In this document: piece after piece, positions 1-61,772 of the stretch
How the letters are laid out: every line of letters starts with the position of its first letter
How positions within the stretch are numbered: the stretch's first letter is position 1
Assembly: GCA_946403315.1 (NCBI GenBank)
Contig: CAMIZK010000001.1
Location: 1,588-65,587 of the forward strand
DNA length: 64,000 nt
DNA from: an uncultured Bacteroidales bacterium
Lineage (GTDB): Bacteria > Bacteroidota > Bacteroidia > Bacteroidales > Paludibacteraceae
Direction: 5' to 3'
Made by a program: the position numbers and the translations under genes
Notes under the pieces: model-generated
Database searches by the model: none
Told to the model about the DNA's origin: nothing
What the model saw: only the letters and a program-made list of their open reading frames with translations

Positions 1-1019
1 AGAAGTTCAATCTGCCCGATTTTATCGAGAAGGTTGAGCATTCAGCCATCAGCCATCAGCCATCTGCCATTTTTATCTCTCCCATCCGGGAGGTGGATGA
101 CTTCCACGGTGCCTACAGCAAGGATGACCGGACAAGGTGTTTCCTTAAAGTACAAGACGGATGTAACTATTTCTGCTCTTACTGCACCATCCCTATGGCA
201 CGCGGAAAAAGCAGAAACCCATCGATTTCATCGTTAGTAACAGAAGCCCAAGAAGCCTTAGACGGCGGTGCCAAAGAGATTATTTTAAGCGGCGTGAATA
301 TTGGTGATTTTGGTAGATCAACCAATGAACATTTCATTGACCTATTACGCGCTTTGGATAATCTTCAATCTCCAATATCCAATGTCCAATCTCCAATGGA
401 TACGTACCGTATCCGCATCTCCAGCTGTGAACCGAACCTGCTGAGCGATGAGATCATCGATTTTGTAGCGCACAGTGCCCATTTTGCACCCCATTTCCAT
501 ATTCCGTTGCAGTCCGGCAGTAACACGGTGCTCAAGATCATGGGTCGCCGTTATACGCGTGAGTTATTTGCTGAACGCGTTGCGCATATTAAGACCGTCA
601 TGCCGCATGCCTTCATCGGCGTCGATTGCATGGTAGGTGTGCGTGGTGAGACCGCCGAGTGTTGGGCAGATTATGTCGATTTCATCGAGTCTTTACCCGT
701 TTCTCAATTGCATGTATTCACCTATTCCGAACGCGCCAACACGCGCATGCTCGAGATGGATCTGGAGGTGATTCCGCAAAAAGAACGGGAACGCCGCAGC
801 AAAGTGCTGCACGAGATATCGGCTCGTAAAACTGAGGCGTTCTACAAAGAACACGAAGGCTTTGAGGCCCTCGTGCTTTGGGAGTCCGGTAACGGACGAA
901 AGGCGAACGGTGACCGGCTAATGTACGGTTTCACCGAGAATTATATCAAGGTCAGTTGTCCGTACAATCGTGCTAAAGTGAACACGTTTGAGCGCATAAC
1001 CGTGCCGCATCTTCATTAG
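1..1019 (+). CDS. mtaB: tRNA methylthiotransferase of the MtaB/MiaB radical-SAM family; the 5' end lies outside the window
   Basis: The frame of ORF 93..1019 stays open back to nt 3 (KFNLPDFIEKVEHSAISHQPSAIFISPIREVDDF...). CNYFCSYC is a CxxxCxxC radical-SAM motif. SGVNIGDFG and PHFHIPLQSGS motifs are present, with a TRAM-like C-terminus. The gene carries three in-frame heptamer arrays. Confidence 0.8.
   Translation, partial: KFNLPDFIEKVEHSAISHQPSAIFISPIREVDDFHGAYSKDDRTRCFLKVQDGCNYFCSYCTIPMARGKSRNPSISSLVTEAQEALDGGAKEIILSGVNIGDFGRSTNEHFIDLLRALDNLQSPISNVQSPMDTYRIRISSCEPNLLSDEIIDFVAHSAHFAPHFHIPLQSGSNTVLKIMGRRYTRELFAERVAHIKTVMPHAFIGVDCMVGVRGETAECWADYVDFIESLPVSQLHVFTYSERANTRMLEMDLEVIPQKERERRSKVLHEISARKTEAFYKEHEGFEALVLWESGNGRKANGDRLMYGFTENYIKVSCPYNRAKVNTFERITVPHLH
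43..70 (+). repeat. Heptamer array, CAGCCAT x3 plus CTGCCAT, in frame in mtaB (SAISHQPSAI)
   Basis: Read directly: cagccat cagccat cagccat ctgccat. Confidence 0.9.
360..394 (+). repeat. Heptamer array of the AATCTCC family, 5 units, in frame in mtaB (NLQSPISNVQSP)
   Basis: aatcttc aatctcc aatatcc aatgtcc aatctcc. Confidence 0.9.
887..921 (+). repeat. Degenerate heptamer array of the GGCGAAN family in mtaB (GNGRKANGDRL)
   Basis: cggtaac ggacgaa aggcgaa cggtgac cggctaa. The peptide matches the ANGE-type arrays elsewhere in the window. Confidence 0.6.
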
Positions 1020-1881
1020 GCAGACATTCCAGTTTATACACCGGAACGAGTTCCAACACCTGCGCGATGGATTCATAGATATGATCCATCATCTCCGGCA
1101 TCACTTTCAGTCCACTTACCGAAGCGAGGATATACGGATACGCCTGCGACATACGCAGTTTATTAATCTTATTCTCAGGCGCTTGCGCTAACTGTACCAA
1201 TGCCTGCAGGGTCACAGACTGCTGCTTGTAGCACGGGGTCTTTCCCGACCACGGCGAACCATAGACACGGACCGTATTATCCTCCAGCACACGCACCACA
1301 GGATTATCGTCATTCAACAGCCACGACTCCGGAAAGGCTTTCTTCCACTGCTGGGAATGGGTACTCTTTCCCGTTCCCGAATGACCAAGGAACATATGGC
1401 CTTTGTCGTCCAGCACGGTAACGGACGAATGGAAAAGAAGGGTCTTCTTGTCTCCCGTGGCAAAGGCATAGACCAGCATCGCCGCATTATCAATGGCAAA
1501 ACGCGTATAGGCAGCACGGGAATACAGTTGCACATCCCTCCAATCCCGAGAGCAAACCATCGTGCTCACCACCTCTCCTTCCCTACTCATCGAGATACGG
1601 AACAGCCATGCATCCGGACGCTGATACATCTCTATACGCGGCATATCGTCATCCGAACGATCCGTATAAACATGCTCCCAGCCTTCGGGGGAAGGCATGG
1701 CTTCGTCATTGAAATGAATGACGAAGAGGGGGGACGGGTTACGGGTTACGGGTGAGAGGAAGGGAGCATAGTTCGGCAGCTGTTTCACTTGTTCTTCTGT
1801 CACTTCCATGCCGAAAACGAAATCGGCGACATTAAAATAATTTACCATTTTATCATTTACCATTTGTGCATTTATTTTCAA
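973..1881 (-). CDS. HPr kinase-like P-loop protein of unknown role
   Basis: GHSGTGKSTH resembles the HprK C-terminal-domain P-loop. The start overlaps the stop of the upstream addB-like gene by 4 nt (1878-1881). It has one in-frame heptamer array (SPVTRNPSP). Its 3' end overlaps convergent mtaB by 47 nt. Confidence 0.55.
   Translation of the reverse strand: MKINAQMVNDKMVNYFNVADFVFGMEVTEEQVKQLPNYAPFLSPVTRNPSPLFVIHFNDEAMPSPEGWEHVYTDRSDDDMPRIEMYQRPDAWLFRISMSREGEVVSTMVCSRDWRDVQLYSRAAYTRFAIDNAAMLVYAFATGDKKTLLFHSSVTVLDDKGHMFLGHSGTGKSTHSQQWKKAFPESWLLNDDNPVVRVLEDNTVRVYGSPWSGKTPCYKQQSVTLQALVQLAQAPENKINKLRMSQAYPYILASVSGLKVMPEMMDHIYESIAQVLELVPVYKLECLPNEDAARLCAQTCSL
1729..1756 (-). repeat. Heptamer array with sense unit CCCGTAA (plus strand GGGTTAC), in frame in the HprK-like gene (SPVTRNPSP)
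   Basis: Plus strand: gggggac gggttac gggttac gggtgag. Confidence 0.85.
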
Positions 1882-4664
1882 AATTCTTTGGGTTTACGGC
1901 CGCAGAGCACGAAGAAGGGACAGAATTTAGGACATCTGCCTTCTTCGCACGGCGGAAAATCGGTTGTTTGTAACACTTGTGCTACTTTCGCTTGTAAGGC
2001 CGGCATCAGTTTCTCTTGAATGGCGCTTACATCGTGAACCGTTTCATTCTCCAGATCGAGTGTCGTCACCATATCCGTCAGTTTGCATTTGCAGAAATAC
2101 AGATGCGGTTCAATCGGCAGGTGCGTATCATCATGTTGCCGCACGGCTTCGGAATAGATCAGCGTCTGCCGTACATAACCTTTGTCTTCGCTTTCCATCA
2201 AGTCCTCCCAGGTAGCCGACATCTTCTTGGCATGCGTGGTGTCGGAATACGAACCGGATTTATAATCCACCACACGCAAGTGCTGATCGCCTTCCGGACC
2301 GTATATATCCAGTCGATCGACACGTCCGCCGGTAAGCACTTCCCCTACTCCTTCCACCGGTACGGTAAACAGCCGTTCCTGCTCTAACAGATGAATCTGC
2401 AATCCGACTTTCGCATCTTCGCGGTCACGCTCCAAGATATTGGATACATAGCCTTTGATGACCACATTCTCCGACGCATGTTCATCGGGGTTATACAGGT
2501 TCTCCTCTTCGTTCATAATCCGGTAGGCCTCCATCAGCGCCTCATTCATCTTGGCTTCATCGGTACGGATTGCCTCGATTTCATCGGGAGAAACACGTAC
2601 CGGCGCTTTGTTATCGCATTGCAGATAGTTCTTATAGATATGCTCCATCATATGATGCACGAACGAACCCATCGTAGCGGCATTGAAGAGCACTTCCTTC
2701 TCATCTTTCGGCCGTACACCGCGGATATACTGGAAATAAAACGAGCGGGGACAAGCTATGAACGTATTCAGCGCCGAAGGCGAGATGAGATACCGTTTGC
2801 CGTCTGCACGACGCAGGACACCGGTTTCGTCCTTTGTTAACATGCTTAACAAAGAGACATTGGAGATTGGAGATTGGAGATTGGATATTTCTGTCAGTTT
2901 GGCATCTTCCTGCAGGGTATATTGTTGCACGGCAAATTCCTCCGAATAGAGCAGTTGCATCACAAACCGCGACATCCCTTTTCCGCCTTCTGCACTCTGC
3001 GCATTGGCGTACATAAGCGTTGCCTGACCGGTACGGTTCAACAGACGGAAGAAGTTATACGCATAGACCGTTGCCCGTTCATCCGGCGTCTGCATATGAT
3101 AGGTCTTACGCAGATAGAAGGGAATGAAGGACAAGTCATTCTGCCGTTGCGGCAGCACTCCTTCTTCCACATTTAATATCAGCAATCTGTCAAAATCCAA
3201 CAGACGCGTCTCGAGTACACCCATCACTTGGATGTCCGTCACCGGTTCGCCATGGAACGGCATCGTCACACTCTCCATCGTGCGGCGGATCAGTAACCGC
3301 AGCAGTTTGAGTGTAAACGGCACATCTCCTAAGCCGGTCTCCACCAAGGACCGCATCTGATAGATGATCTTATGCACCTGGTACTCCGACTCCAGCGCCA
3401 ATAACTCTTGCCAGGATAAAGGTGATTGGTCTTCTTCCGATTTCTTGGGGAAGATAGCCTGTGATAATTCCTCGATGAAATCGGGAGAAACCAGATCCTC
3501 CGCATGCCCTCTTACATGCTCATTGAGCCACGCCAGCACACGCGCATAGATGGCGGTGTTACGCAGCGGAAAACCTTTTGTGATATTAACAGGAGCCTTT
3601 TCGCCATCCACCGTAATCGCCGGTAACGCATATATAACCGGTTCTAACATCGTCTCATCGCAGATGACGACACCCACTTTCTGGCCCTTCGCCGTATAGT
3701 TCTCCAGTAACCACCGGTGCACATACTGCGCCTGGGATTCTCGAGAACTACATTCGATAAGGGTTACGGGGGACGAGTTACGGGTTACGGGAGATTGGAG
3801 ATTTTTACCTCCTAAAATATCCCTATTCTGCTTGGTGAAAGAGAAGGCTTTCTCGTTGGTCTGGAAATTCGGCACGTAGTCCCAGAAGAACAGCGCTTGG
3901 TCATTGTCTCTGAGCCGCAGCATCAGATCCCGTTCCACCGGTAAGAGGTAGTTAAAACCCACAAAGACAAACGTGCGGCCTTGTATCTGCTGTTGCACCG
4001 ACTCATCGTTCCAGTTCTCTAACACAGCGCGCTGCCGCATACCCGGATAGCCCTTTTGCTCCGCCTGCATCTGCGCTTTGAGAGCCTTGTACAGTTCGTA
4101 TAACTGCGTCCAAAGTACTTCATACTGCGCCTTGACGGAATCTCCATTCGCCTTTCGCCCTTCGCCATTGGCCATTAAGGCTTTCAGCCTTGACTCCGTT
4201 TCCGGATCCAACTGCCATTGTTCCAGTTCATGGGCGGCGATGGTGTTCTCGAAGAAATTCGGCACTTCCTCCGCCGGCATTGAGGCATCGATATTCGTGA
4301 AATCGGCCAACATCTGCCTACCCCAACCGTAGAAGAGATCCAATGACATTGGAGATTGGAGATTGGAGATTGGAGTAATCTGATTAATCAGATTATTCCG
4401 ATAAATCCGATATAATCTGACTATCGTAAACAGTTCATCTTCGGCATAGAGGGGACTGAGGTCATCCTGCAATTGGGTAAGCGTCCGTACACGCGGTGCC
4501 CACACCGCCTGCGCATGCCGTTCCTGCTGAAGCCGCAGCAGTTCGTCTTTCAGCACCAGACCGGCACGGTGAGAGGGTAAGACCAGCGTGGTGCGATTGA
4601 GCTGTTTCCACTCCATCTGATCTAAGATCGCCTCTGCTGTTTGTCGTAGAAAACTATTGTTCAT
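1878..4664 (-). CDS. AddB-like PD-(D/E)XK nuclease subunit
   Basis: The 928-aa protein has a C-terminal nuclease signature (GGRVDRLDIY...LRVVDYKSG) and terminal cysteines (FIACPRSF ... CEEGRCPKFCPFFVLC), as in the AddB Fe-S staple. It overlaps the addA-like gene by 4 nt. Four in-frame heptamer arrays are present. Confidence 0.75.
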   Translation of the reverse strand: MNNSFLRQTAEAILDQMEWKQLNRTTLVLPSHRAGLVLKDELLRLQQERHAQAVWAPRVRTLTQLQDDLSPLYAEDELFTIVRLYRIYRNNLINQITPISNLQSPMSLDLFYGWGRQMLADFTNIDASMPAEEVPNFFENTIAAHELEQWQLDPETESRLKALMANGEGRKANGDSVKAQYEVLWTQLYELYKALKAQMQAEQKGYPGMRQRAVLENWNDESVQQQIQGRTFVFVGFNYLLPVERDLMLRLRDNDQALFFWDYVPNFQTNEKAFSFTKQNRDILGGKNLQSPVTRNSSPVTLIECSSRESQAQYVHRWLLENYTAKGQKVGVVICDETMLEPVIYALPAITVDGEKAPVNITKGFPLRNTAIYARVLAWLNEHVRGHAEDLVSPDFIEELSQAIFPKKSEEDQSPLSWQELLALESEYQVHKIIYQMRSLVETGLGDVPFTLKLLRLLIRRTMESVTMPFHGEPVTDIQVMGVLETRLLDFDRLLILNVEEGVLPQRQNDLSFIPFYLRKTYHMQTPDERATVYAYNFFRLLNRTGQATLMYANAQSAEGGKGMSRFVMQLLYSEEFAVQQYTLQEDAKLTEISNLQSPISNVSLLSMLTKDETGVLRRADGKRYLISPSALNTFIACPRSFYFQYIRGVRPKDEKEVLFNAATMGSFVHHMMEHIYKNYLQCDNKAPVRVSPDEIEAIRTDEAKMNEALMEAYRIMNEEENLYNPDEHASENVVIKGYVSNILERDREDAKVGLQIHLLEQERLFTVPVEGVGEVLTGGRVDRLDIYGPEGDQHLRVVDYKSGSYSDTTHAKKMSATWEDLMESEDKGYVRQTLIYSEAVRQHDDTHLPIEPHLYFCKCKLTDMVTTLDLENETVHDVSAIQEKLMPALQAKVAQVLQTTDFPPCEEGRCPKFCPFFVLCGRKPKEF
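2854..2888 (-). repeat. Heptamer array with sense unit AATCTCC, in the addB-like gene (ISNLQSPISNV)
   Basis: Plus strand: gagacat tggagat tggagat tggagat tggatat. Confidence 0.9.
3761..3802 (-). repeat. Chimeric 6-unit heptamer array (CCCGTAA family joined in phase to the AATCTCC family) in the addB-like gene (NLQSPVTRNSSPVT)
   Basis: Plus strand: gggttac gggggac gagttac gggttac gggagat tggagat. This is 42 nt, or 14 codons. Confidence 0.9.
4141..4176 (-). repeat. Heptamer array with sense unit GGCGAAN, in the addB-like gene (MANGEGRKANGD)
   Basis: Plus strand: cattcgc ctttcgc ccttcgc cattggc catt. Confidence 0.85.
4350..4377 (-). repeat. Heptamer array with sense unit AATCTCC, in the addB-like gene (TPISNLQSPM)
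   Basis: Plus strand: tggagat x3 plus tggagta. Confidence 0.9.
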
Positions 4665-7600
4665 TTGACCTCCTCCAATTTATTCTTTCGTGCGTACCAT
4701 AGGTAACCGCGAACAGGGTTATAACCGATCCTGCGCAGTGCCTCTTTATATTCGTTCACCTGCGTATGGTATTTTTTATCCGGATGCTCTCCGAACTTAT
4801 AGTCCAGTACAATGGCTTCATGGGTGACGGGATTGATCATCACACGGTCCGGCCGCAGCTCCTGCCGGTCAATATAGATGGCTTCTTCGAGCCGCAACTC
4901 CCAAGGGGCCGTGAACCAGTCTTTCATCTGCTCATTGCCTTGCCATGCCGATGAAATCAGCGCTTTTAATTCCTCCCGTTGTGCTTTATCCTTGATCTGA
5001 CCATTACTTTCAAACATATCCAGAACGGCATCCAGTTCCTCGGCTTTTCGTACATGCGCGAAGATCTCATGGCATAGCGTTCCTTCATCCATACGTGCCA
5101 CACGGCGGTAGGCTTCATCGCCGTAATCGGTGTATAACGCACCTTCCTGGGACTGAACGAACTGCACTTGTTTGCCATCCGACCATAGTTCGGCCGTCTC
5201 CCCATTCGCCGTTAACCTTTCGCCATTCGCCTTTATCACCGGTGTTCCTACTTCGTAATCATCGGCACCGACAAAATCCATGATATAGCGTCCGACGTGG
5301 TTACAGGTACCCATGACGCCGTTGACCGTAACGGGATAGGAAGTATAGACAAAGAGATTATCTTCCGCCCGGGTGAGCGCCACATAAAGCATATTGAGGT
5401 TATCTATCCGCATGTTGGCATGCTCCTCCTCATGGGCCTCAGCATAGGCCGAATCACCCATCTCCGGTCCGTCTTGAATGGGCACATAATCATCGCCCAT
5501 GTTTAGTTCCGGAGCCACCGGACACCACACTTTCTGCGGATGCCGACCGGCTTCTTTAGGCCACATGCAGAACGGCACGAACAGCGTCTGCGCCTGCAGG
5601 CCTTTGCTGGCATGGACGGTCATGATACGGATGGCATCAGAGGACGTAGCCGGAATAGCTTTGGCATGCATGGTGTCTTCCCAATACGTGAGGAAATCCT
5701 CCTTGCTGCTGCCATATGCGCCTACGTACGCCCGTGTGCGATCCAATAAGTTATTGAGATACGCCGTCTCCGAACCGTGGTACTGGCCGTTCGCATCACA
5801 AAGCAGGATACGGATCAATTCACTGATGGTTTCAAAAAGCGGCGTATCGGGTGTGATGGAGGAACGTATTTGTTCGATGAAACCGATAGAACCTGTACGC
5901 ATCTCGATATACAAAGCCGCCACTAAATCGTTTTTCACCAGCACTCTCAGTCCGGCGATGACCAATTGCACATCTGCCGACGCTTCGAGTACATAACTGT
6001 CTGCACTGACCACCGGATAAGGCGACAGGTCACAGATAAGGTTAGCTTCTTTCTTCTCACGCACCAGAATGAGGATATCCGACAGGCGGGTTCCTTTTTC
6101 TACCAGTTCCCCAATGCGGTCAAACATATAGAGCGCCATTTCCTCTTTCGTTCCTTTTGGAAAGGCTTTGAACTGCACATACCCGCCGGGTTTCTTATCC
6201 GCCTGGTAGAACTGCGATAACTTCTCCTCCTTATATCCTTCTGAGTAGATACGTTCCGGAGCACCGTCTTTACGGATGATACGATCGAAGAGGGAGAGGT
6301 TGAATTTCACCACCTCTTCGGAACTGCGGAAGTTCTGGGTAAGCGATTTGAATTTTTTGTTCAATCGTTCCCCATTCGCCGTTAGCCTTTCGCCATTCGC
6401 CGTTAAACCGTCCATGATATGCCAGTCACCGTTTCGCCAACGGTAGATAGACTGCTTGATATCGCCTACCACGAGCAGGGTGTGACCGGCACCGGCCAAT
6501 ACATCTTCGAGGAGTTTCCGGATAACGGACCATTGCAGCTGGCTCGTATCCTGGAACTCATCCATCAGCACATGCTTGTACCGGATACCGGCTTTCTCCA
6601 AGATAAAGTCGGCATCGCCTTCGCGTAAGGCCTTGCTGAGCGTACCGGCTGTTCGTGCCAGCAGGGCGCAATTGGCTTCCGCCAGATTACGTTGGATGAG
6701 TGCCTGAAGGGACGCCATCAGTTCCTGATCACGCGAAAAACGGATGGTGAGTTGCAGCGTATTATATCTTCGCCCTACCCGTGCCGCCAGTTCCGTCGCC
6801 TGCGCCATCTCATCGGCATTACAACTCTTCTCACTCACACCGCGAAAACGGTCTCTGACCGGTACACTCTCCGGATCGGCCACACTGCGTTTGAGACGCT
6901 CGAAAGCGGCGGTCGTATTTCGGTTATAGGACTCAGGATTACAGTGTTTGAGCAAGTCTTTGAGTTCCCGGAACGAAGGATCGTTGGCCCATTGTTCCTC
7001 GATCGCCTTGCGTCTGCGTTCGATAGCCGCAGCATCAAAAAGAATCTGACCGTCTGCATCCAGCACCTGCACCGATTCGTTATACAGTTCCTTGGCCATG
7101 GCGCAGAGACTTTCCCTCACATCCCAATGACTCTCCTGATCGAGTTTAAGACGCATATATTCCTCCATGATCGCCCGGTCCGCAGGCGTCATGTCAGTGG
7201 TTAGCAACTGATCCACCGCCTGGCGTATCACATGGTCGATGTCCAGTTCGGTATTCAGTCCGGCACTCATCTGCAGCACACCGGCCAGACCGCTGAGCAG
7301 GGTCTGGAGAAAAGCGTCGATCGTCATGACGTGCACATTATCATAGTCCAAGAGCATGCGTTTGAAACATTCCCCTGCGCGCTGCGCCAGCAGTTCTTGA
7401 GGTGCTTCCGCATCACGCAGCATGAACTGCCGGGCACGATTCAGGAAATCCTCTTCCTGACCTTGCGAGATACCATGCAGGTACTTGATGATACGCTCAC
7501 TCATCTCCGACGTCGCCTTGTTGGTAAACGTAATAGCGAGAATAGAGCGATAGTCTTCACCGGACAGCAACAAACCTACATAATACGCTGCTAAAGTATA

Positions 7601-7669
7601 AGTCTTACCCGTTCCTGCCGATGCCTTACACACCGTCACCGGACGATTTATGTCGATTAATTGATCCAT
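4661..7669 (-). CDS. AddA-like UvrD/Rep-family helicase-nuclease
   Basis: Motifs seen are Walker A (ASAGTGKTYTL), motif II (LMDEFQDTS), TVHASKGLQ, YVALTRA, and a C-terminal PD-(D/E)XK-like element (RPDRV...IVLDYKFG). I place the start at ATG 7669 (MDQLIDINRP). The ORF-track extension to 7858 runs through the promoter. Confidence 0.85.
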   Translation of the reverse strand: MDQLIDINRPVTVCKASAGTGKTYTLAAYYVGLLLSGEDYRSILAITFTNKATSEMSERIIKYLHGISQGQEEDFLNRARQFMLRDAEAPQELLAQRAGECFKRMLLDYDNVHVMTIDAFLQTLLSGLAGVLQMSAGLNTELDIDHVIRQAVDQLLTTDMTPADRAIMEEYMRLKLDQESHWDVRESLCAMAKELYNESVQVLDADGQILFDAAAIERRRKAIEEQWANDPSFRELKDLLKHCNPESYNRNTTAAFERLKRSVADPESVPVRDRFRGVSEKSCNADEMAQATELAARVGRRYNTLQLTIRFSRDQELMASLQALIQRNLAEANCALLARTAGTLSKALREGDADFILEKAGIRYKHVLMDEFQDTSQLQWSVIRKLLEDVLAGAGHTLLVVGDIKQSIYRWRNGDWHIMDGLTANGERLTANGERLNKKFKSLTQNFRSSEEVVKFNLSLFDRIIRKDGAPERIYSEGYKEEKLSQFYQADKKPGGYVQFKAFPKGTKEEMALYMFDRIGELVEKGTRLSDILILVREKKEANLICDLSPYPVVSADSYVLEASADVQLVIAGLRVLVKNDLVAALYIEMRTGSIGFIEQIRSSITPDTPLFETISELIRILLCDANGQYHGSETAYLNNLLDRTRAYVGAYGSSKEDFLTYWEDTMHAKAIPATSSDAIRIMTVHASKGLQAQTLFVPFCMWPKEAGRHPQKVWCPVAPELNMGDDYVPIQDGPEMGDSAYAEAHEEEHANMRIDNLNMLYVALTRAEDNLFVYTSYPVTVNGVMGTCNHVGRYIMDFVGADDYEVGTPVIKANGERLTANGETAELWSDGKQVQFVQSQEGALYTDYGDEAYRRVARMDEGTLCHEIFAHVRKAEELDAVLDMFESNGQIKDKAQREELKALISSAWQGNEQMKDWFTAPWELRLEEAIYIDRQELRPDRVMINPVTHEAIVLDYKFGEHPDKKYHTQVNEYKEALRRIGYNPVRGYLWYARKNKLEEVK
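5196..5237 (-). repeat. Heptamer array with sense unit GGCGAAN and a 21-nt superperiod, in the addA-like gene (KANGERLTANGETAE)
   Basis: Plus strand: cgtctcc cattcgc cgttaac ctttcgc cattcgc ctttatc. Confidence 0.85.
6366..6407 (-). repeat. Heptamer array with sense unit GGCGAAN and a 21-nt superperiod, in the addA-like gene (TANGERLTANGERL)
   Basis: Plus strand: cgttccc cattcgc cgttagc ctttcgc cattcgc cgttaaa. This is 42 nt. Confidence 0.9.
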
Positions 7670-7687
7670 ACTAACGATTTTGCGGCG

Positions 7688-7720
7688 CAAAATTACAAAA
7701 AAAAATTGATATATGCAAAT
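7688..7720 (-). promoter_or_regulatory. Bacteroidota sigma-A-type promoter for the addA-like operon
   Basis: Sense strand: TTTGCATATATCAATTTTTTTTTG-TAATTTTG. The TTTG-to-TAnnTTTG spacing is 20 nt. The ATG lies 19 nt below the -7 box. Confidence 0.8.
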
Positions 7721-7763
7721 AATTGGAAAGAAAAATAAAAAAATGGAAAAAAATGCCTGTGCA

Positions 7764-7808: not shown

Positions 7809-7814
7809 TTGAAT

Positions 7815-53229: not shown

Positions 53230-54793
53230 GACAAGCAAACGCGCACCGCAGACCACCATCATCAAGGTGGGTGCCAACGAGGCGGGTAAGTTACCCCCTC
53301 AGGCGCAGGAGTTGGAAGACTCCGTCATCGGTGCGTTGATGATAGAGAAAGAAGCCTACGGAACGGTAGCCGATCTGTTACGTCCGGAGGTGTTCTATAA
53401 GGATCAGAACCGCATGGTTTTTGAAGCCATCCGTGAACTGGCGGCCAAAGACCAGCCGATCGACGTGATGACGGTAGGTGAGAAGATGAAGACGCAGGGC
53501 ACGCTGGAGAAAGCCGGCGGTCTGGTGTACTTAGCCGACCTGAGTAGACGTGTAGCGTCTGCGGCACACCTGCGTTACCATGCGCAGATCATCGCTCAGA
53601 AAGCGACGGCGCGTGACCTGATCGCGATGGCTGCACAGATCGAAGAGAAAGCGTACGACGAGACCCAGGATATCGATGACCTGATGCAGGAAGCGGAAGC
53701 CGGAATCTTCGAGATCACACAGAGAAGTCAGAAACGGGATGTGACACAGATCGACCCCGTCATTGAAGAGGCCTTCAAACGTATGGAGAAAGCGGCACAG
53801 AACACGGGTTCGATATCCGGTATTCCGTCCGGTTTCAACGCATTGGATAAGATCACGTCCGGCTGGCAGACACCGGATCTGGTGATCATCGCCGCTCGTC
53901 CGGCGATGGGTAAGACGGCGTTTGTGCTGTCCATGGCCAAGCATATGGCCATTGACCGGGAGATACCTACGGCGATCTTCAGTCTGGAGATGAGTAACGT
54001 GCAGTTGGTTAACCGTCTGATTATGAACGTGTGCGAGATCGAAGGCGAGAAGATCAAAACGGGTAAGATGAGTAAGGCGGACAGCCAGAAACTGAACACG
54101 AAGATCAATATCATGAAGGGTAAACCGCTGTACATGGACGATACACCTTCTCTGTCGATCTTTGAGTTGCGGTCCAAAGCCCGTAAGCTGGTGCATGACC
54201 ACGGTGTACGAATCATCATCATCGACTATCTGCAGCTGATGAACGCACAGGGTTCGTCTTTCGGCAGCCGTGAGCAGGAAGTAAGTATCATCTCCCGTGG
54301 ACTGAAAGGTCTGGCGAAGGAGTTGGATATACCGATTATTGCGTTGTCGCAGTTGAACCGTGGTGTGGAAGCGCGTACGGGTATTGAAGGCAAGACACCG
54401 CAGTTGAGTGACCTACGTGAGTCGGGTGCCATCGAGCAAGACGCCGATATGGTATGCTTTATCCATCGTCCGGAGTACTATCATATCTATACCGATGAGA
54501 AATCCGCTAAGGACCTGCGTGGTCTGGCACAGATCATTGTGGCGAAGCACCGTAACGGTGCTACGGATAGTATCTGGTTGCGGTTCCGAGGCAAGTATGC
54601 CAAGTTCCAGAACGAGGATGAGGCCATCGATCCGGATGAGTTGAATACACCGATGATCCCGGATGGCGGAGGCATGTCCATTCAGTCGAGCATGAACAGC
54701 GCAATGGGAGCCGTGTCCTTCGGACAACAGATGAATGCGGACGGCGCAAGTATGAACAGTTTAGGTGAAGATTTAAGTCAATATCAATTATAG
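53213..54793 (+). CDS. dnaB: Replicative DNA helicase DnaB
   Basis: PPQAQELEDSVIGALM (N-terminal domain), Walker A (AARPAMGKTAF), IIIDYLQLM, ALSQLNR, SDLRESGAIEQDAD and KHRNG motifs are present. Confidence 0.9.
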   Translation: MAGTSKTSKRAPQTTIIKVGANEAGKLPPQAQELEDSVIGALMIEKEAYGTVADLLRPEVFYKDQNRMVFEAIRELAAKDQPIDVMTVGEKMKTQGTLEKAGGLVYLADLSRRVASAAHLRYHAQIIAQKATARDLIAMAAQIEEKAYDETQDIDDLMQEAEAGIFEITQRSQKRDVTQIDPVIEEAFKRMEKAAQNTGSISGIPSGFNALDKITSGWQTPDLVIIAARPAMGKTAFVLSMAKHMAIDREIPTAIFSLEMSNVQLVNRLIMNVCEIEGEKIKTGKMSKADSQKLNTKINIMKGKPLYMDDTPSLSIFELRSKARKLVHDHGVRIIIIDYLQLMNAQGSSFGSREQEVSIISRGLKGLAKELDIPIIALSQLNRGVEARTGIEGKTPQLSDLRESGAIEQDADMVCFIHRPEYYHIYTDEKSAKDLRGLAQIIVAKHRNGATDSIWLRFRGKYAKFQNEDEAIDPDELNTPMIPDGGGMSIQSSMNSAMGAVSFGQQMNADGASMNSLGEDLSQYQL

Positions 54794-54820
54794 TCGAAAG
54801 ATAAAAGTCGAAAGATAAAA
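54793..54820. repeat. Direct 14-nt repeat x2 (two 7-nt half-units) between dnaB and asnS
   Basis: gtcgaaagataaaa gtcgaaagataaaa, immediately after the dnaB stop. Confidence 0.85.
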
Positions 54821-54824
54821 GAAT

Positions 54825-56222
54825 ATGCAAAGAACAGTAATTATCGATGCGTTAAAACGCACGGATTTTGGGTCAGAGATCAACGTGAGAGGATGGGTTC
54901 GCAGCCGTCGCGGCAATAAACAAGTGTCGTTTATTGCGCTGAATGACGGTTCGACGATCAAGAACATCCAGATCGTGGTGGACCTGGAGAAATTCGATGA
55001 GGAGCGACTCAAACCTGTGACTACCGGTTCGTGTATCTCAGCGACGGGTATCCTGGTAGAGAGTCAGGGAGCAGGTCAGGCGGTTGAGATTCAACTGAAG
55101 GATCTGGAAGTCTATGGTACCGCTGATCCGGAGAAATACCCGTTACAGAAGAAAGGTCTGAGTATGGAGTTTTTGCGTACTATCGCACATCTCCGTCCCC
55201 GTACCAACACCTTTGGTGCGGTATTCCGTATCCGTCATAACATGGCCATGGCGATTCACACCTATTTCCATGAGCATGGATACTTCTATTTCCACACGCC
55301 GCTCATCACGGCCAGTGACTGCGAAGGTGCCGGTCAGATGTTCCAGGTGACGACCAAGAACCTGTATAACCTCAAGTACGACGAGAACGGTCAGATCGAT
55401 TATAGCGACGATTTCTTCGGCAAACAGGCAGCGCTTACCGTTTCCGGGCAGTTGGAAGGTGAGTTAGGCGCCATGGCATTAGGAAAAATCTATACCTTCG
55501 GTCCTACGTTCCGTGCAGAGAACAGTAACACACCGCGTCACTTAGCGGAGTTCTGGATGATTGAGCCGGAAGTGGCGTTCATTCAGAAAGAGGAACTCAT
55601 GGACCTCGAAGAAGACTTCATCAAATACTGCGTTCGTTGGGCCTTAGAGCATTGTATGGATGACCTGGAGTTCCTCAACCAGTTTGTGGACAAGGGTCTG
55701 ATCGAGCGTCTGAAATCGGTGGTAGATACCGAGTTTGTCCGCCTACCCTACACCGAGGGTATTAACATCCTGCAGGAAGCCATCAAGAACGGTAAGAAGT
55801 TTGAGTTCCCCTGCAACTGGGGCGATGACTTGAGTTCGGAGCATGAGCGTTTCTTAGTGGAAGAGCACTTCAAGAAACCCGTCATCATGACCGACTATCC
55901 GAAGGATATCAAGGCGTTCTACATGAAGATCAACGAGGACGGAAAGACCGTGCAAGGTACCGACGTGCTGTTCCCGCAGATCGGTGAGATCATCGGCGGT
56001 AGTGTACGTGAGGAGAGTCTGGACCTGCTGAACGATGAGATTGAGCGTCGTCATATCCCGATGAAGGATATGTGGTGGTATTTGGACACCCGTCGTTTCG
56101 GTAGCGCACCGCACGCAGGCTTCGGTTTAGGCTTCGAGCGTCTGATGCTGTTCGTAACGGGTATGCAAAACATCCGTGACGTCATTCCGTTCCCGAGAAC
56201 ACCGAAAACGGCGGAGTTCTAA
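54825..56222 (+). CDS. asnS: Asparagine--tRNA ligase
   Basis: The 465-aa protein has an OB-fold N-terminus ([23 protein letters not shown]) and class II motifs ([34 protein letters not shown]). Confidence 0.92.
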
Positions 56223-56223
56223 T

Positions 56224-56258
56224 TGAAAAATGAAAAATGAAAATTGAAAATTGAAAAT
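56224..56258. repeat. Intergenic heptamer array, TGAAAA(A/T) x5, immediately after the asnS stop
   Basis: tgaaaaa tgaaaaa tgaaaat tgaaaat tgaaaat. Confidence 0.9.
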
Positions 56259-56291
56259 TTCATATCATAAAAACACTAACAAACAATCGTT

Positions 56292-59200
56292 ATGAGACAA
56301 AAACTCTTTTCTCTGATGGCGGTGCTGATGCTGAGTGTAGCAGTTATGGCACAGACATCACTCAAGGGCCGCGTTATCGATGACGCTACACAACTGCCGG
56401 TTGTGGGAGCCAAGATAACTTTGGCGAATCAGAACATCTCAACCACGACGAATGCAGCGGGTGAGTTCTCGTTGCTGTATCTGGAAGCGATGGATGAGGA
56501 GATTCTGATTGAAGCAGACGGTTATGTCGTTGATCTTCAATTGATTAATCTCTTAGAGAACCAAGTGAACACGATGGATGACATCTTGCTCAAACAAGAC
56601 ATTGTGTCGCAGGCACAGGATGAGATCCTGCTGAACCTGACGGAAGAAGAGATGACGGATGATGAAGGTCGTTCGCAATCCCAGGCTTCGTCATCGTCTG
56701 CCTCAACGGATGTGTTCAATTCGAACACCTCTTTCGCTTGGTCCACCGCACGTTACCGTAACCGTGGTTATTCCTCCAACGTAGAGAACTACTACATCGA
56801 GGGTCTGAATTTCAGTTCTCAGGAACGCGGTCAGTTCAACTACTCTGCTATGGGTGGTCTGAATGATGCCAGTCGTTACAAAGAGGTGCTGAACCCGATG
56901 GAGGCGACCAACTTCACCTTTGGTGGTATCGGTCAATCGACCAATTACATGATGGGTGCAAGTCGTTATGCGCAAGGATGGAAAGTAGGTGCAGCGGGAA
57001 CGAACCGTAACTACAAAGCCCGTGTGAACGCTACGTATTCGAGTGGTGTGATGAACAACGGCTGGGCAGTAACGGCACAGTTGGCTTACCGTTTCTCTCC
57101 GTACGTGGACAACAAAGGTATCATCGGTGAAGGTATCAAGTACTATTCGTTGGGTTACTTCCTGACGGCCGAGAAGATCTGGGACAACGCCCGTTTGAAA
57201 CTCATCACTTTCGGTGCTCCGACAGAGCGTGGTCAGAACGCAGCGGTGACGCAAGAGGTGTATGACCTGACGGGATCGATCAACTACAACCCCTATTGGG
57301 GCTATCAGGACGGTAAGGTACGTAACAGTCGTATTGTGAAGTCGTATGACCCGACGGTGATTGCTGCTTATGAGTACAAGATCGATGAGCAGCAGAAGAT
57401 CAAAGCAGCCGTTGGATACCATTATTCCTGGTATTCGAACTCAGCGCTGAACTTCTTCAACGCGCCGGATCCCCGTCCGGATTATTACCGTAACCTGCCT
57501 TCGTTCTACTGGGACGGTCAGATTGCGAATCCGAACAATGAGACTTCCGCCGGTCAACTATTTGACGAGAACGGAAACCACTATCCGTGGGGTCTGTTCA
57601 TCGGAGAAGATATGAAGGGTGTGAACTTAGGTAGCGGTTTCGTAGGCGACGACGGTAACTTAGTGGGTCCGTCGGTAGATAAAGATATGTATAACAACCT
57701 CGTTCATCTGTGGCAGACGCGTGATAACAAGACGACGCAGATCGACTGGGCAAATATCTATGCCGCCAACTACGCCAACAATGCCAATGATGCGGCAAGT
57801 GATACAATTACATCGGCACGTTATATCTTGGAACGCCGTCACAATGACATCCAAGAGGCCAACGCTTCGTTTAACTACGTGAACGAGCAGTTTGATCATC
57901 TGCGTATGACCTTAGGTGTAGAAGGTAAGTTCTCCCAAGGTATTCATTATAAGACGATTGATGACTTGTTAGGTGGTAACCAATGGATCGATATTGATGC
58001 GTTTGCGGACCGTGATATCAAGGAATTGGCATCGAACGGCGGATTCACACAAGCCGATATCATCAATGTTCGTAAGAACGAAGTAGCAGAAGACTATGAT
58101 CCGATCGTGAAAGCGGACGGTCGCCGTTACGGTTATGACTACCGCATTAACATGGGCAATGCGAAGGTATGGTTTCAGAACGAATGGACGCTGAATGAGG
58201 TGGATCTGTACTATGCGCTGCAGTTGAACTACAGCATGATGCAACGTAGCACGAACATGCTCAACGGTCGTGCATGGTACCAGACGAAGATTGCGAAAGA
58301 GAAAGCGTTAGCAGGCGAAGAGATTGATCCGGCTATCTATTACGGTCACAAAGCTTACGAGCAGATCGAGGCAGCAACGGCAGCCGGTACGTTAAAGTCC
58401 GGTACGACCTATGTGGGTGACGCTCACCATTTCTTGGATCCGGCGTTTAAGTTAGGAGCCAACTATAAGATCAACGGTCGTAACCACCTGAAGCTGAATG
58501 TATTGGCAGAGACACGTGCACCATTTGCGCGTGATGCCTATATCTCGCAGCGTGTGTATGACCGCGTGTTGGATCAAATCTACGCACACGATAACGCCAA
58601 GAGTCTGAAGGACTTCTATGCAGCCAGTGAGAAAGTTGTTTCTGCGGATCTGACGTATGAGTTTAACTACCCGATCGTTCGTGGTCGTGTTACCGGATTC
58701 TTCACCCAGAGTTGGGATGGTTCGGAATTGAACGGATACTATGACGACGAGGCACGTACGTTTGTGAACCAGGCGATGTCGGGTATCGGTAAACGTTACA
58801 TGGGTATCGAGGCAGCAGCAGCCGTTAAGTTGGGTACGTACTTCACCTTGACCGGTGTGGCTTCGGTAGGTGACTATCGTTATACGACAGACGCTACTTC
58901 GATCACTTCTGCGGAAAACGGTATGCCGATGACGCAGGATAAATCCACGAAGGCGTTAGTATTTGAAACCAAAGATAAGGTGTTGCTGAAGGGCTTGAAG
59001 TTATCGAACGGACCGCAGGCGAACGCCAGCTTGAAGTTGAGTTTCTTCCACCCGAAGATGTGGTTCGCTGATGTAACAGTTAGTTACCATGACTGGAATT
59101 TCCTCAGTGTAGCTCCGAGTCGTCGTATGCAAGGTCTGTACACCGGTGTACGTGTGGACGGAACGGATGTGAACGGTTGGTTCGGCGATGAGAACGCGAA

Positions 59201-59633
59201 TGCGATCGAGACTACAGACGGTCAGATGTTACGCGTGACGGTGGATGAAGCGGGTAACGCTGTTTATGAGAATGCGGTATTGGATGCCAACGGTGTTCCG
59301 GTACTGAAATATCCGTATAACCTGATGACGATGCAAGAGAGTCTGGCAGCAACGAATCCGTTGAACCGCTTCCTGATCGATGCATCGGTAGGTAAGTTGA
59401 TCTATCTGCCGAACCGTCAGTCGGTATCTATCAACCTGAGTGTAACGAACTTAGGCAACAACACGCATTTCAAGACCGGAGGTTATCAACAAGCCCGTCT
59501 GCCGCGTGCCGTTCGTCAGGGAGAGAAAGACTACCAGAACTCGATCATCACCGCCAACGCATGGAAATACCCGTCGAAGTACTACTATGCTTGGGGAGCT
59601 AACTTCTTCTTAACCGTAACGTATAAATTCTAA
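56292..59633 (+). CDS. Large TonB-dependent-receptor-like outer-membrane protein with an N-terminal CarboxypepD_reg domain
   Basis: A signal peptide (VAVMAQT) is followed by LKGRVIDDATQLPVVGAKITL...NAAGEFSL. The body is about 1000 aa and beta-rich, ending in TVTYKF (terminal aromatic residue). Confidence 0.6.
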   Translation: MRQKLFSLMAVLMLSVAVMAQTSLKGRVIDDATQLPVVGAKITLANQNISTTTNAAGEFSLLYLEAMDEEILIEADGYVVDLQLINLLENQVNTMDDILLKQDIVSQAQDEILLNLTEEEMTDDEGRSQSQASSSSASTDVFNSNTSFAWSTARYRNRGYSSNVENYYIEGLNFSSQERGQFNYSAMGGLNDASRYKEVLNPMEATNFTFGGIGQSTNYMMGASRYAQGWKVGAAGTNRNYKARVNATYSSGVMNNGWAVTAQLAYRFSPYVDNKGIIGEGIKYYSLGYFLTAEKIWDNARLKLITFGAPTERGQNAAVTQEVYDLTGSINYNPYWGYQDGKVRNSRIVKSYDPTVIAAYEYKIDEQQKIKAAVGYHYSWYSNSALNFFNAPDPRPDYYRNLPSFYWDGQIANPNNETSAGQLFDENGNHYPWGLFIGEDMKGVNLGSGFVGDDGNLVGPSVDKDMYNNLVHLWQTRDNKTTQIDWANIYAANYANNANDAASDTITSARYILERRHNDIQEANASFNYVNEQFDHLRMTLGVEGKFSQGIHYKTIDDLLGGNQWIDIDAFADRDIKELASNGGFTQADIINVRKNEVAEDYDPIVKADGRRYGYDYRINMGNAKVWFQNEWTLNEVDLYYALQLNYSMMQRSTNMLNGRAWYQTKIAKEKALAGEEIDPAIYYGHKAYEQIEAATAAGTLKSGTTYVGDAHHFLDPAFKLGANYKINGRNHLKLNVLAETRAPFARDAYISQRVYDRVLDQIYAHDNAKSLKDFYAASEKVVSADLTYEFNYPIVRGRVTGFFTQSWDGSELNGYYDDEARTFVNQAMSGIGKRYMGIEAAAAVKLGTYFTLTGVASVGDYRYTTDATSITSAENGMPMTQDKSTKALVFETKDKVLLKGLKLSNGPQANASLKLSFFHPKMWFADVTVSYHDWNFLSVAPSRRMQGLYTGVRVDGTDVNGWFGDENANAIETTDGQMLRVTVDEAGNAVYENAVLDANGVPVLKYPYNLMTMQESLAATNPLNRFLIDASVGKLIYLPNRQSVSINLSVTNLGNNTHFKTGGYQQARLPRAVRQGEKDYQNSIITANAWKYPSKYYYAWGANFFLTVTYKF

Positions 59634-59638
59634 GAACT

Positions 59639-60865
59639 ATGAGAAAGTCTATTTATACATATGCAATGTTGCTGGCAATGCCGGTCATTGCGCTTATGAC
59701 CTCTTGTGAACCGCGTGAGTTAACGGAGGACGATGTATTCGTTCAGGAGAGTTCGTTAGACCAGATCCTTCAGGAAGAGAACGGCGATCAGGGATATAAG
59801 ATCTACGATCTGAATGAGTTCCTGGATACGTTCATGACCGAGGAAGGAAGTTTCCACAGCGACACTTGTCCGTACCGTGAACGCTCGTACGATGCTACGC
59901 ACGGTATCTATCTGTATTCGGTGGATACGCTACCGACCAACGGTGCCGGTATCTATATCCGTGGTCGTGTGACGACCGACGACTACGCCGGAAACTTCTA
60001 CAAAGCAATGGTGATCCAGCAGATCGTGAACGGTGAGCAGCAGAACCTTCGTATCTCGGTGGATCTGGGTTCGAGTGCCGGAATGTACCAGTTAGGTCAG
60101 GAAATCATTATCCGTTGTAACGGTCTGGCTGTAGGTCGTTATGCGAACCAGCCGCAGTTATGTATCCCGTCGTACAACAACAATATCTACGCGATGAACG
60201 CAAGCCAGAAAGTGGGCTGGTGTCCGGGACGTATCCAAGGTTCGGTATTCCGTAGAGCAACGCGTATGATCGGTACGCCTGACGTGAAGGCAATTCAAGT
60301 GGACGAGTTGACTATGGCTGATTTGTACACACAGATCGCATTAAAGCCGACGGCAGACGCTGCAGGTATGGATGCGGTTCGTAAAATGGACGGTCGCCTG
60401 ATTCGTCTGAAAGATGTGCATTTCACAGGTCAATACGATGACAGCGGTACGCTGAAAAACTGCGACACCACGGATCCGGATTCGGAAGGTGGAGGCGGAG
60501 CGAATGTGTTTGCACCTTCGACGCAGAATATCGGATATCCGCAGAGCCGTCTGTTAGGTGACCAAGGTTCGAATAAGTTAATGTGCTCGAGTTCGGAGTA
60601 CGCTAAGTTCGCTTACTACTACCTGCCGGGTGCAGACAAGAACGGCGTGACGAACTGCAAGAACTACGAAGGTACCGTAACGGGTATCTTAGGCTGGTAT
60701 CTGGACAAGGCATCGGACTTGGCACAAGGCAAGTTGGACGGCTATGAGTGGTCGGTAACGCCGCGTGGTATCCCCGGTATCGGTGTTATGGATATCGATA
60801 TGAAAGATACGCACGACGAGCCGTGGGTTCCTAAAGAGTACGATCCTAAGACTCAAGAAGAATAA
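59639..60865 (+). CDS. Putative lipoprotein partner of the preceding outer-membrane receptor (DUF5689-like, tentative)
   Basis: A lipobox (LMTSC) lies 5 nt after the receptor stop, so it is probably co-transcribed. The family assignment comes from memory of neighbourhood patterns only. Confidence 0.45.
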   Translation: MRKSIYTYAMLLAMPVIALMTSCEPRELTEDDVFVQESSLDQILQEENGDQGYKIYDLNEFLDTFMTEEGSFHSDTCPYRERSYDATHGIYLYSVDTLPTNGAGIYIRGRVTTDDYAGNFYKAMVIQQIVNGEQQNLRISVDLGSSAGMYQLGQEIIIRCNGLAVGRYANQPQLCIPSYNNNIYAMNASQKVGWCPGRIQGSVFRRATRMIGTPDVKAIQVDELTMADLYTQIALKPTADAAGMDAVRKMDGRLIRLKDVHFTGQYDDSGTLKNCDTTDPDSEGGGGANVFAPSTQNIGYPQSRLLGDQGSNKLMCSSSEYAKFAYYYLPGADKNGVTNCKNYEGTVTGILGWYLDKASDLAQGKLDGYEWSVTPRGIPGIGVMDIDMKDTHDEPWVPKEYDPKTQEE

Positions 60866-61363
60866 ATGAACTGGTTAGATGTTCTCATCTTATTACCTGT
60901 TCTGTATGGCCTGATAAGAGGCTTTATGCGCGGGTTTGTCTCCGAGGTCATCGCCTTTGCGGTGGTGATCTTCGGAGCACTCGGCGCACGACTTATCGCT
61001 CCGCCTGTATCGGGCGCTATCCGGTCAGCGTTTAATTGGGATGAAGGAACGTGCGATGTGATTGCCTATGTGGTGGTATTTATCGTCGTAGCCGTCATCC
61101 TTTCCCTGCTGGCCAAACAGGTCAACCGGTTTGTGCATGCTATCCATTTAGCGTGGCTGAACAGCGTGTTAGGCGGAGTATTCGGAGCATTAAAAGCATG
61201 TCTGCTGGTACTGATCGTGGTGTTTGTATTTGAACGCACGAATGAGGAGTATCACTATCTGGACAATGCGCCAATTATTCAGAAATCCACTTTGTATCCG
61301 AAGGCATCGGAAGCGACGCATGTATTATTTTCTTTCTCTCGGGAGCAACTTGGGGAACTGTGA
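60866..61363 (+). CDS. cvpA: CvpA-family membrane protein
   Basis: MNWLDVLILLPVLYGLIRGFMRGFVSEV is present, with 4 TM helices in 165 aa. Confidence 0.75.
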   Translation: MNWLDVLILLPVLYGLIRGFMRGFVSEVIAFAVVIFGALGARLIAPPVSGAIRSAFNWDEGTCDVIAYVVVFIVVAVILSLLAKQVNRFVHAIHLAWLNSVLGGVFGALKACLLVLIVVFVFERTNEEYHYLDNAPIIQKSTLYPKASEATHVLFSFSREQLGEL

Positions 61364-61772
61364 GCAGACGCTGCAGACAGCGCTGCAACAGATTGAACAG
61401 GAAGTAGGGCACGTAGATCGCTGCTCTTCTTTTTTCTATTCCGAGCCTTGGGGTTTCGAGAGCACCCACGGGTTTTGTAACCTCTGCTGCCGCGTAGAGA
61501 CGGAGTTGATGCCGTTAGAGGTACTGCATAAGACGCAGGCGATTGAACGGGCGTTGGGACGAACGCATAAGAGCATGGATGGCCATTATGCGGACCGAAC
61601 GATCGATATAGATCTGATACGGGTTTTTGATAAGGAGGGGAAAGAGATAAAATTAGCTATCAGCCATCAGCCGTCAGCCATCAGCGATGAGCCTCAATGG
61701 CTTACGCTCCCCCACCCGCTTTGGGAGCAGCGGGATTTTGTGAAGCTTCCATTAGCTGAGATAATGTACTGA
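61320..61772 (+). CDS. folK: 2-amino-4-hydroxy-6-hydroxymethyldihydropteridine diphosphokinase (HPPK)
   Basis: YFLSLGSNLGN, YSEPWGF, RTIDIDLI and LTLPHPLWEQRDFVKLPLAEI motifs are present. I place the start at ATG 61320, overlapping cvpA by 44 nt. It has an in-frame heptamer array (LAISHQPSAISDE). Confidence 0.85.
   Translation: MYYFLSLGSNLGNCEQTLQTALQQIEQEVGHVDRCSSFFYSEPWGFESTHGFCNLCCRVETELMPLEVLHKTQAIERALGRTHKSMDGHYADRTIDIDLIRVFDKEGKEIKLAISHQPSAISDEPQWLTLPHPLWEQRDFVKLPLAEIMY
61654..61688 (+). repeat. Heptamer array of the CAGCC(A/G)T family, in frame in folK (AISHQPSAISD)
   Basis: tagctat cagccat cagccgt cagccat cagcgat. Confidence 0.9.

Follow-up and report, generated by a model that had tools for sequence, protein, structure and literature searches.

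Because seven is coprime with three, translation of a tandem array of heptanucleotide units passes through all three frames of the unit and yields a repeat of seven residues. Cyanobacteria reportedly carry several tandem heptamer families dispersed over the genome, the short tandemly repeated repetitive (STRR) sequences, and the Rickettsia palindromic elements (RPE), of ~100–150 bp, are said to lie in frame within genes. The neuO tract of Escherichia coli K1 is reportedly perfect and long, occupying the 5′ end of a single accessory gene, for which it is an on/off switch. Heptamers are the commonest unit length among the long simple sequence repeats (LSSR) of prokaryotes, and coding regions mainly hold units that are multiples of three, according to the account of Mrazek et al. 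2007 given in PMC4679880. Direct repeats of TAACTGA occur in Beggiatoaceae, Cyanobacteria, and some Bacteroidetes, with Paludibacter among the named hosts; stops occur within this unit, and nearly all its copies are intergenic (MacGregor 2015, PMC4679880). Here we analyze the heptamer arrays of a 64,000-nt stretch from an uncultured Bacteroidales bacterium of rumen or gut, a member of the Paludibacteraceae (contig CAMIZK010000001.1, positions 1,588–65,587), hereafter the window, where the coding arrays keep one orientation relative to their gene.

The arrays of the window and its relatives are LSSR in kind, with head-to-tail units within the 5–11 nt range of that class in runs longer than chance, at many loci, and with a sporadic phylogenetic distribution such as PMC4679880 recounts. 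They differ from LSSR in that 69 of 90 lie inside genes, in frame and under a strand rule (overlapping calls of Tandem Repeats Finder, TRF, merged; 287 kb). Several heptamer families at many loci, and composite arrays of different units in related loci, recall STRR, but the units are others (the window holds no tandems of CCCCAGT, TTGGTCA, or CAACAGT), the host is a Paludibacteraceae-like member of the Bacteroidales, and the arrays are mostly coding. Heptamers common to distant phyla, marked orientation relative to neighboring genes, and placement next to starts and stops are shared with TAACTGA repeats, tandems of which number zero in the window; unlike those, the present arrays are translated and mostly coding, and just a minority are start-adjacent (54797–54822 and 28857–28878). 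As in neuO, a 7-nt repeat within a coding region yields a peptide repeat of seven residues so long as the number of units preserves the frame, whereas here the arrays are imperfect and short, occupy many housekeeping genes, and are always in frame, none being a long perfect switching tract. As with RPE, repeats are tolerated in conserved genes through surface loops and a kept frame, and translation constrains orientation and frame, but the window arrays are direct tandem repeats and not a discrete conserved palindromic element; palindromic structure is found in the window just at 4376–4395 and 23900–23955, and in the inverted array pairs of Chloroflexota. Literature searched by repeat strings and by heptanucleotide repeats held no description of these arrays, nor of array turnover at hot spots, units shared across phyla, or the G-first inverted pairs treated below. 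What sets this case apart from the known systems is that 7-nt repeats of several families have densely colonized loops of housekeeping genes and follow a translational strand rule.

The window has a G+C content of ~50% and an ordinary Bacteroidales gene content by Pfam; its homologues carry the name Paludibacteraceae in public records, and identical proteins are present on ENA metagenome contigs. TRF reports ~20 period-7 arrays in the window, and our own period-7 autocorrelation scan agrees with it on the places given in table 1; at least six heptamer families occupy more than 20 sites, mostly as short (3–5 units), imperfect arrays. Compared with dinucleotide-preserving shuffles of the window, the AATCTCC pattern AATCTCCAATCTCC (up to two mismatches) gave 14 matches versus 0.59 expected, the GGCGAAN pattern GGCGAANGGCGAA (up to one mismatch) 13 versus 0.29, and the CCCGTAA pattern CCCGTAACCCGTAA (up to two mismatches) 4 versus 0.34. 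Two antisense-strand matches to the AATCTCC pattern (4139–4152 and 5452–5465) are not arrays: one consists of a lone GGAGATT unit, the other matches with two mismatches. In the full corpus of 287 kb, comprising the window and related contigs obtained by strand-neutral pattern scans and by look-ups of HPPK and AddB orthologues, 93 period-7 arrays were counted versus 4.2 in codon-shuffled controls.

Every array named in an earlier note on this DNA sits in a long open reading frame (ORF) and, on the sense strand, leaves that frame uninterrupted. All host ORFs have a Pfam match except the ScmC-like gene at 973–1881, whose orthologues in relatives carry PF27840 ScmC; an exact-protein look-up for its product returned no record. 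The insertions fall in loops of conserved proteins. The HPPK array coincides with the sole segment with pLDDT <50 in an AlphaFold2 model (residues 116–126) and lies in an indel-hypervariable alignment block; at this place the proteins of close relatives either lack an insert or bear different 7-residue repeats. Heptamer-derived peptides are confined to ~8 sites among 120 AddB orthologues, with hot spots near residues 96, 168, 290, 408, and 588 and up to ten unit families at one site, and the arrays are in frame in every orthologue of HPPK and AddB examined. The longest coding array (47222–47297) has a 21-nt superperiod of 3.5 copies with 98% match, and therefore grew in frame-preserving steps of three units.

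In the window AATCTCC stands in sense in 4 of 4 arrays and GGCGAAN in 5 of 5, in genes on both strands, as do CCCGTAA in 2 of 2 and all arrays of CAGCC(A/G)T (table 1). The earlier note had described this orientation as fixed and had argued that stops cannot explain it for AATCTCC and GGCGAAN; coordinates, frames, and Pfam-supported hosts bear out the first statement for the window, and trinucleotide enumeration the second, both units and their complements being stop-free. Its remarks on the other two families were also correct. ATGGCTG, the antisense unit of CAGCCAT, contains TGA; CCCGTAA contains TAA, its complement TTACGGG contains no stop, and yet it is the stop-containing strand that is found in sense, with no run of more than two perfect units and with both arrays ending or altering a unit exactly where TAA would enter the frame. 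The observation is thus confirmed for the window, but carries modest statistical weight: AddB holds three of the four AATCTCC arrays, the two AddA arrays beginning at 5202 and 6368 are copies of one another, since one irregular 30-mer is common to both, and the chance probability for the window counted per gene under a coin-flip null is ~1/16.

Orientation follows the gene strand within the window and not the replichore, because the AATCTCC and GGCGAAN arrays of the MtaB-like gene are on the plus strand and those of AddB and AddA, 2–4 kb away, on the minus strand; GGCGAAN returns to the plus strand at 9426. The coupling to replication direction that the earlier note had raised would mean that arrays track the fork and genes merely co-orient with it. 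GC skew does change sign together with gene strand across the window, and dnaA stands beside AddA in relatives, so that the array-rich region is perhaps near an origin. Such coupling would, however, need several switches of origin or terminus within 10 kb (360–9461), and a relative (L212) repeats the pattern on neighboring genes of opposite strand; we regard this explanation as effectively refuted.

The orientation agrees with a rule at the level of residues. Each base of a unit becomes the second base of a codon once per 21 nt, where T gives hydrophobic residues, A polar ones, C Ser, Pro, Thr, or Ala, and G Gly, Trp, Arg, or Cys; the T count of a unit therefore sets the number of hydrophobic residues, and orientation becomes simple to predict. 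Of the arrays within coding sequence in the 287 kb, 24 are unforced, that is, their reverse complement is stop-free in all frames. In 23 of these 24, residues of the class W/C/F/I/Y/V/L/M are fewer on the sense than on the reverse strand (binomial P = 3e-6), and the sole exception is the single antisense array of AATCTCC type. Trp occurs once in the unforced arrays versus 15.3 for the reverse strand. A exceeds T on the sense strand in 21 of them and falls below it in 2 (41 versus 11 over all coding arrays). The rejected strands would encode GDWRLEI, with one Trp per heptad, for AATCTCC, the Ile- and Phe-rich IRHSPFA for GGCGAAN, and LRVTGYG for CCCGTAA. Among site-by-family combinations in AddB, ~10–11 of 14 obey the rule and 2 are contrary (hand tally from the table of 120 orthologues), none of those orthologues holds a stop-free family in reverse orientation, and AddA obeys the rule in 4 of 4. 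Within GGCGAA[N]GG, T fills the variable position in 0 of 8 cases where that position opens a codon, compared with 7 of 13 in the other phases (Fisher P = 0.018). Because this avoidance is confined to the phase that creates TGG, the Trp codon, it depends on reading frame and acts at the level of translation. Moreover, eight arrays are altered exactly at units that would yield in-frame stops.

Outside the window the orientation is a strong tendency and not a fixed law, inside or outside the lineage, and in this respect the earlier wording was too strict. Lineage totals are ~13 sense to 1 antisense for AATCTCC-type arrays, ~8–10 to 2 for GGCGAAN, and 3–4 to 0 for CCCGTAA. The two antisense GGCGAAN arrays (ATTCGCC in sense) occur in two genes of L212, for an NTP-transferase and an APH-family kinase, both of which also carry AATCTCC-type arrays in sense. 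L212 is a close relative: in tetranucleotide similarity to the window it comes 4th among 192 loci, and a Paludibacteraceae relative has ribosomal proteins 96–99% identical to its own. The antisense AATCTCC-type array reads GGAGATT in sense in the ACPS gene of L254. It could be argued that no real bias exists and that chance combined with non-independence (one gene, gene-conversion copies, shared ancestry) produced the pattern. The concentration in AddB and the AddA copies fit that argument, as do arrays that are orthologous among the window, L254, and L176, and the lower lineage ratio of GGCGAAN. Yet the AATCTCC-type arrays were found by strand-neutral searches in at least nine different genes and at least six genomes, reversed stop-free families are missing from the AddB orthologues, and the residue rule covers many unrelated families. 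We therefore consider a chance origin quite improbable.

Two further scans extend the sample, an (AATCTCC)3 scan of genomes (L003–L121) and a GGCGAAN scan of metagenomes (L122–L241); counts from them cover the matches listed and are lower bounds, and genes outside the window (Chloroflexota and metagenome loci) were called with our own codon-based gene caller. The (AATCTCC)3 matches listed are mostly from Chloroflexota, where 45 arrays are sense, 26 antisense, 53 intergenic, and 12 at contig edges; a Pfam scan of eight Chloroflexota genes bearing an AATCTCC-type array in antisense gave a match for every one. One array-rich genome is the Chloroflexia assembly OY969916.1. Other matches listed come from Verrucomicrobiota, Flavobacteriales, Bacteroidales, Acidobacteriota, Gemmatimonadota, and one cyanobacterium. 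GGCGAAN arrays among the matches listed are mostly intergenic. Among the matches listed, AATCTCC and GGCGAAN arrays together recur in these same groups, a Chamaesiphon included, and in numerous unassigned contigs from soil and water. Neither strand contains a stop in roughly half of all heptamer classes, so openness alone fails to explain the recurrence of particular units across phyla.

We lean, with somewhat better than even confidence, towards an explanation in which hypermutable heptanucleotide repeats occupy permissive loops and a translational filter on the encoded peptide sets their orientation. The arrays are repeats of LSSR or STRR type, restricted to a few permissive, disordered surface loops and to sites adjacent to stops and starts; they would arise and be exchanged with no polarity of their own towards transcription. 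Which orientation is kept in a coding region would then be decided by purifying selection on its translation. The kept strand would be one free of in-frame stops whose peptide, having little Trp or Cys and few hydrophobic residues, leaves the loop soluble and flexible. Peptide selection was among the causes offered by the earlier note and is supported here, but not for the reason given there, hydrophilicity: on the Kyte–Doolittle scale NLQSPIS (-0.27) is less hydrophilic than the rejected GDWRLEI (-0.64). The present analysis thus separates a selective cause from the mechanistic ones listed beside it. It would follow that 7-nt microsatellites can colonize essential genes widely, given disordered loops and a strand with a benign three-frame translation, and that the arrays are a natural experiment on the short peptides that proteins tolerate.

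Four other causes were considered and rejected. Seed availability or codon bias fails for AATCTCC, single 7-mers numbering 85 sense versus 195 antisense in the same genes, opposite to the arrays. Avoidance of the Shine–Dalgarno-like GGAG is at odds with its being twice as frequent as CTCC on sense strands (1464 versus 693). Simple hydropathy fits GGCGAAN and most families but fails for AATCTCC, and avoidance of R-loops or G-quadruplexes through a G-poor sense strand is no general rule, the unforced arrays dividing into 13 with C>G and 11 with G>C.

Several points weigh against selection on the peptide. The residue class was picked after the Trp pattern had been noticed, and Kyte–Doolittle values favor the observed strand in just 16 of 21 arrays, AATCTCC not among them. 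Trp-containing peptides of the GDWRLEI type are tolerated in validated Chloroflexota genes. CCCGTAA stands on its stop-containing strand in all of its 3–4 independent cases, and selection on the peptide must therefore outweigh a threefold disadvantage at the stop filter. Some of the counted arrays are orthologous or copies of one another, and the effective sample is smaller than the nominal counts. Lastly, intergenic arrays of the lineage that lie between codirectional genes have a sense strand rich in A or in purines in ~14 of 16 cases; this polarity extends beyond the reach of peptide selection, and a rival at the level of the transcript is therefore kept.

That rival ties polarity to transcription, through generation on one strand relative to RNA polymerase, an RNA intermediate, or a constraint on the transcript itself, such as a need for RNA that is A-rich or in some other way unstructured, or Rho loading onto C-rich untranslated RNA. 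Besides the intergenic polarity it can draw on the site at the AsnRS stop codon, where three families in different strains each have the purine-rich strand in sense, and on the excess of A over T in coding arrays. Against it, the same families stand on opposite strands in intergenic and coding contexts: AAAGGTG and AAAGTTG are sense in intergenic arrays, and genes have the complements ACCTTTC and AACTTTC in sense. For the pair GGAGATT/AATCTCC, long intergenic arrays of Flavobacteriales and other taxa read GGAGATT in sense right after stop codons, and AATCTCC in genes opposes the G-rich-sense trend of intergenic arrays. The antisense exceptions lie in validated genes of the close relative L212, T is avoided just where TGG would form, which is frame-dependent, and intergenic GGCGAAN arrays between codirectional genes divide 16 to 14 among the metagenome matches listed. 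A transcription-coupled insertion mechanism of fixed polarity, as the earlier note had envisaged, is unnecessary, and both the context flips and the exceptions contradict it; for the rival in its wider sense, we judge it unlikely but worth retaining. Avoidance of Rho as a cause of intergenic polarity found no support, counts between codirectional genes among the matches listed being 26 versus 17 for AATCTCC and 16 versus 14 for GGCGAAN.

Inverted array pairs show a polarity of a different kind. Among the matches listed plus the window, pairs made of many unrelated units have the form (G-rich)n–spacer–(C-rich)n in 52 of 55, on either strand, and GGAGATT/AATCTCC pairs among the matches listed are G-first by 33 to 1, compared with 156 to 143 for ordinary inverted repeats in the same loci. 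Examples are L019 2111–2175, L105 3759–3810, L148 504–609, L209 494–558, and window 23900–23955. Some inverted pairs are in frame within Chloroflexota genes and encode peptides of the form GDWRLEI...SPISNLQ. Fold-back copying was rejected as their origin, the arms not being mirror images of each other. Among the matches listed, intergenic arrays that are G-rich in sense (GGCGAAN, GGAGATT) mostly start ~0–12 nt from the upstream stop codon, and C-rich-sense arrays lie within ~40 nt upstream of the next start codon (L142 2082, L169 3584, L229 4588; in Chloroflexota, L034 1331 and L010 6785).

The G-first pairs, the placement at stops and starts, and the sharing of units across phyla hint at a polar generating process. 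Arrays may be laid down by a dedicated polar synthesis, with gene orientation the residue left by the translational filter, although we hold this to be distinctly unlikely. A candidate process would be the extension of broken DNA at its 3′ ends, templated or reiterative and akin to telomere healing, with the G-rich strand written 5′ to 3′. Such synthesis would account for the G-first pairs, the cross-phylum units, the array swaps at hot spots, and the constant period of seven. Turnover, cross-phylum sharing, and G-first polarity all bear on how such repeats are made.

Arrays turn over between close strains by whole-family replacement. A strain 98% identical to the window over 7.7 kb (L259) has an AACTTTC array where the window has AATCTCC at 4344–4375. 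At the site after the AsnRS stop the window has TGAAAAA, strains with an identical AsnRS protein have GGCGAAA, another species has AGGTGAA/AGGAAAA, and yet another has no array, while the flanks are conserved (loci compared: L001 3438–3513, L002, L242, L246, L250). In the few strain pairs compared no clean ±7 nt alleles were seen, the differences being replacement of a whole array by another family.

These observations bear on the possibility that the arrays are phase-variation (contingency) switches. Each gain or loss of a unit would then shift the frame and turn the gene off or on, after the manner of the E. coli K1 neuO heptanucleotide tract, which PMC13001214 mentions. Seven is not a multiple of three and arrays do differ between close strains. 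However, strains differ by family swap and not by unit number, the arrays are short, imperfect, and in frame in every orthologue examined, and the longest array has its 21-nt superperiod. Their hosts are housekeeping genes (HPPK, AddA/AddB, MtaB, M20 peptidase), together with YceD and a radical-SAM gene, and not surface, virulence, or modification genes. A switching role appears highly improbable.

Table 1. Heptamer arrays of the window with their host genes and adjoining repeats.
Feature	Position	Strand	Host or context	Support or detail
MtaB/MiaB-like radical-SAM gene, 3′ part	3–1019	+		Pfam Radical_SAM, E 3e-20; frame open from base 3; hosts three arrays; orthologues in relatives have UPF0004 and Radical_SAM domains
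CAGCCAT array, sense	34–70	+	MtaB-like gene	Period-7 scans
AATCTCC array, 5.4 units, sense	360–397	+	MtaB-like gene	Encodes NLQSPISNVQSP
GGCGAAN two-unit remnant GACGAAAGGCGAA, sense	895–907	+	MtaB-like gene	Encodes part of GNGRKANGD
CCCGTAA array, sense	1732–1753	-	ScmC-like gene 973–1881	Ends just before TAA enters frame
AddB-like PD-(D/E)XK nuclease gene	1878–4664	-		Pfam PDDEXK_1, E 4e-29; five arrays at hot-spot loops
AATCTCC array, sense	2855–2889	-	AddB-like gene	Encodes EISNLQSPISNV
Composite array, two AATCTCC units (3790–3803) then CCCGTAA units (3757–3791), sense	3757–3803	-	AddB-like gene	Unit that would give in-frame TAA changed to TCGTCC
GGCGAAN array, sense	4144–4176	-	AddB-like gene	Encodes MANGEGRKANG
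AATCTCC array, sense	4344–4375	-	AddB-like gene	
Perfect 20-nt palindrome TAATCTGATTAATCAGATTA	4376–4395		AddB coding sequence	Directly adjoins array 4344–4375
AddA/UvrD-like helicase gene	4661–7858	-		Pfam; orthologues cover 94% of query; true start probably ~60 codons downstream of longest-ORF start
GGCGAAN array, sense	5202–5231	-	AddA-like gene	Encodes KANGERLTANGE
GGCGAAN array, sense	6368–6401	-	AddA-like gene	Orthologous copy in L254
GGCGAAT/GGCGAAG array, sense	9426–9461	+	M20 peptidase gene 9241–10428	Perfect 14-nt period reported
Inverted pair (AAAAGGC)2–spacer–(CCTTTCA)5	23900–23955		Intergenic	
Degenerate CAGCCAA/TAGCCAA array, sense	24332–24357	-	YceD-like gene	
TCAGCCA/TCAGACA array	28857–28878	+	Intergenic	41 nt upstream of DAHP synthase/chorismate mutase gene
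CAGCCGT array, sense	46651–46669	-	Radical-SAM/SPASM gene 46634–47797	Near gene 3′ end
CAGCCGT array, sense	47222–47297	-	Radical-SAM/SPASM gene	TRF; encodes (SRQHSAV)n
A-rich array	54797–54822	+	Intergenic	Between DnaB stop and AsnRS start codons, 2 nt from AsnRS start
TGAAAAA/TGAAAAT array	56221–56259	+	Intergenic	Starts at AsnRS stop codon
CAGCCAT array, sense	61655–61693	+	HPPK gene 61320–61772	In hypervariable loop

Further differences from the 98% identical strain lie around the arrays. At window 4329–4453 the array and ~40 nt upstream are replaced, with many synonymous differences, a pattern suggestive of local hypermutation or of recombination over a short tract, and at the CCCGTAA array at 1734 there are 4 substitutions in ~25 nt versus ~2% elsewhere. 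Array load varies by species: the HPPK syntenic neighborhoods of relatives hold few arrays, and L246, with 20 kb syntenic with window 51000–64000, is without period-7 arrays and its HPPK without the insert. The 3164-residue ORF with a cadherin-like domain (36953–46447, minus strand) has essentially no heptamer arrays, though it is the largest target in the window.

In two related contigs dnaA lies immediately upstream of AddA–AddB (L255 5529–6896 and L256 5563–6930); in the window an opposite-strand 2-hydroxyacid dehydrogenase gene (7858–8723) occupies its place, so that a rearrangement took place beside the 10 kb in which arrays are densest. Repeats of period 11 (also 22 and 33) stand in tandem at 48563–48612 and 62669–62731. 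The first of these lies inside a 300-nt AT-rich divergent intergenic region (48516–48813) at which cumulative GC skew is lowest in the window, and this region may be regulatory or origin-like.

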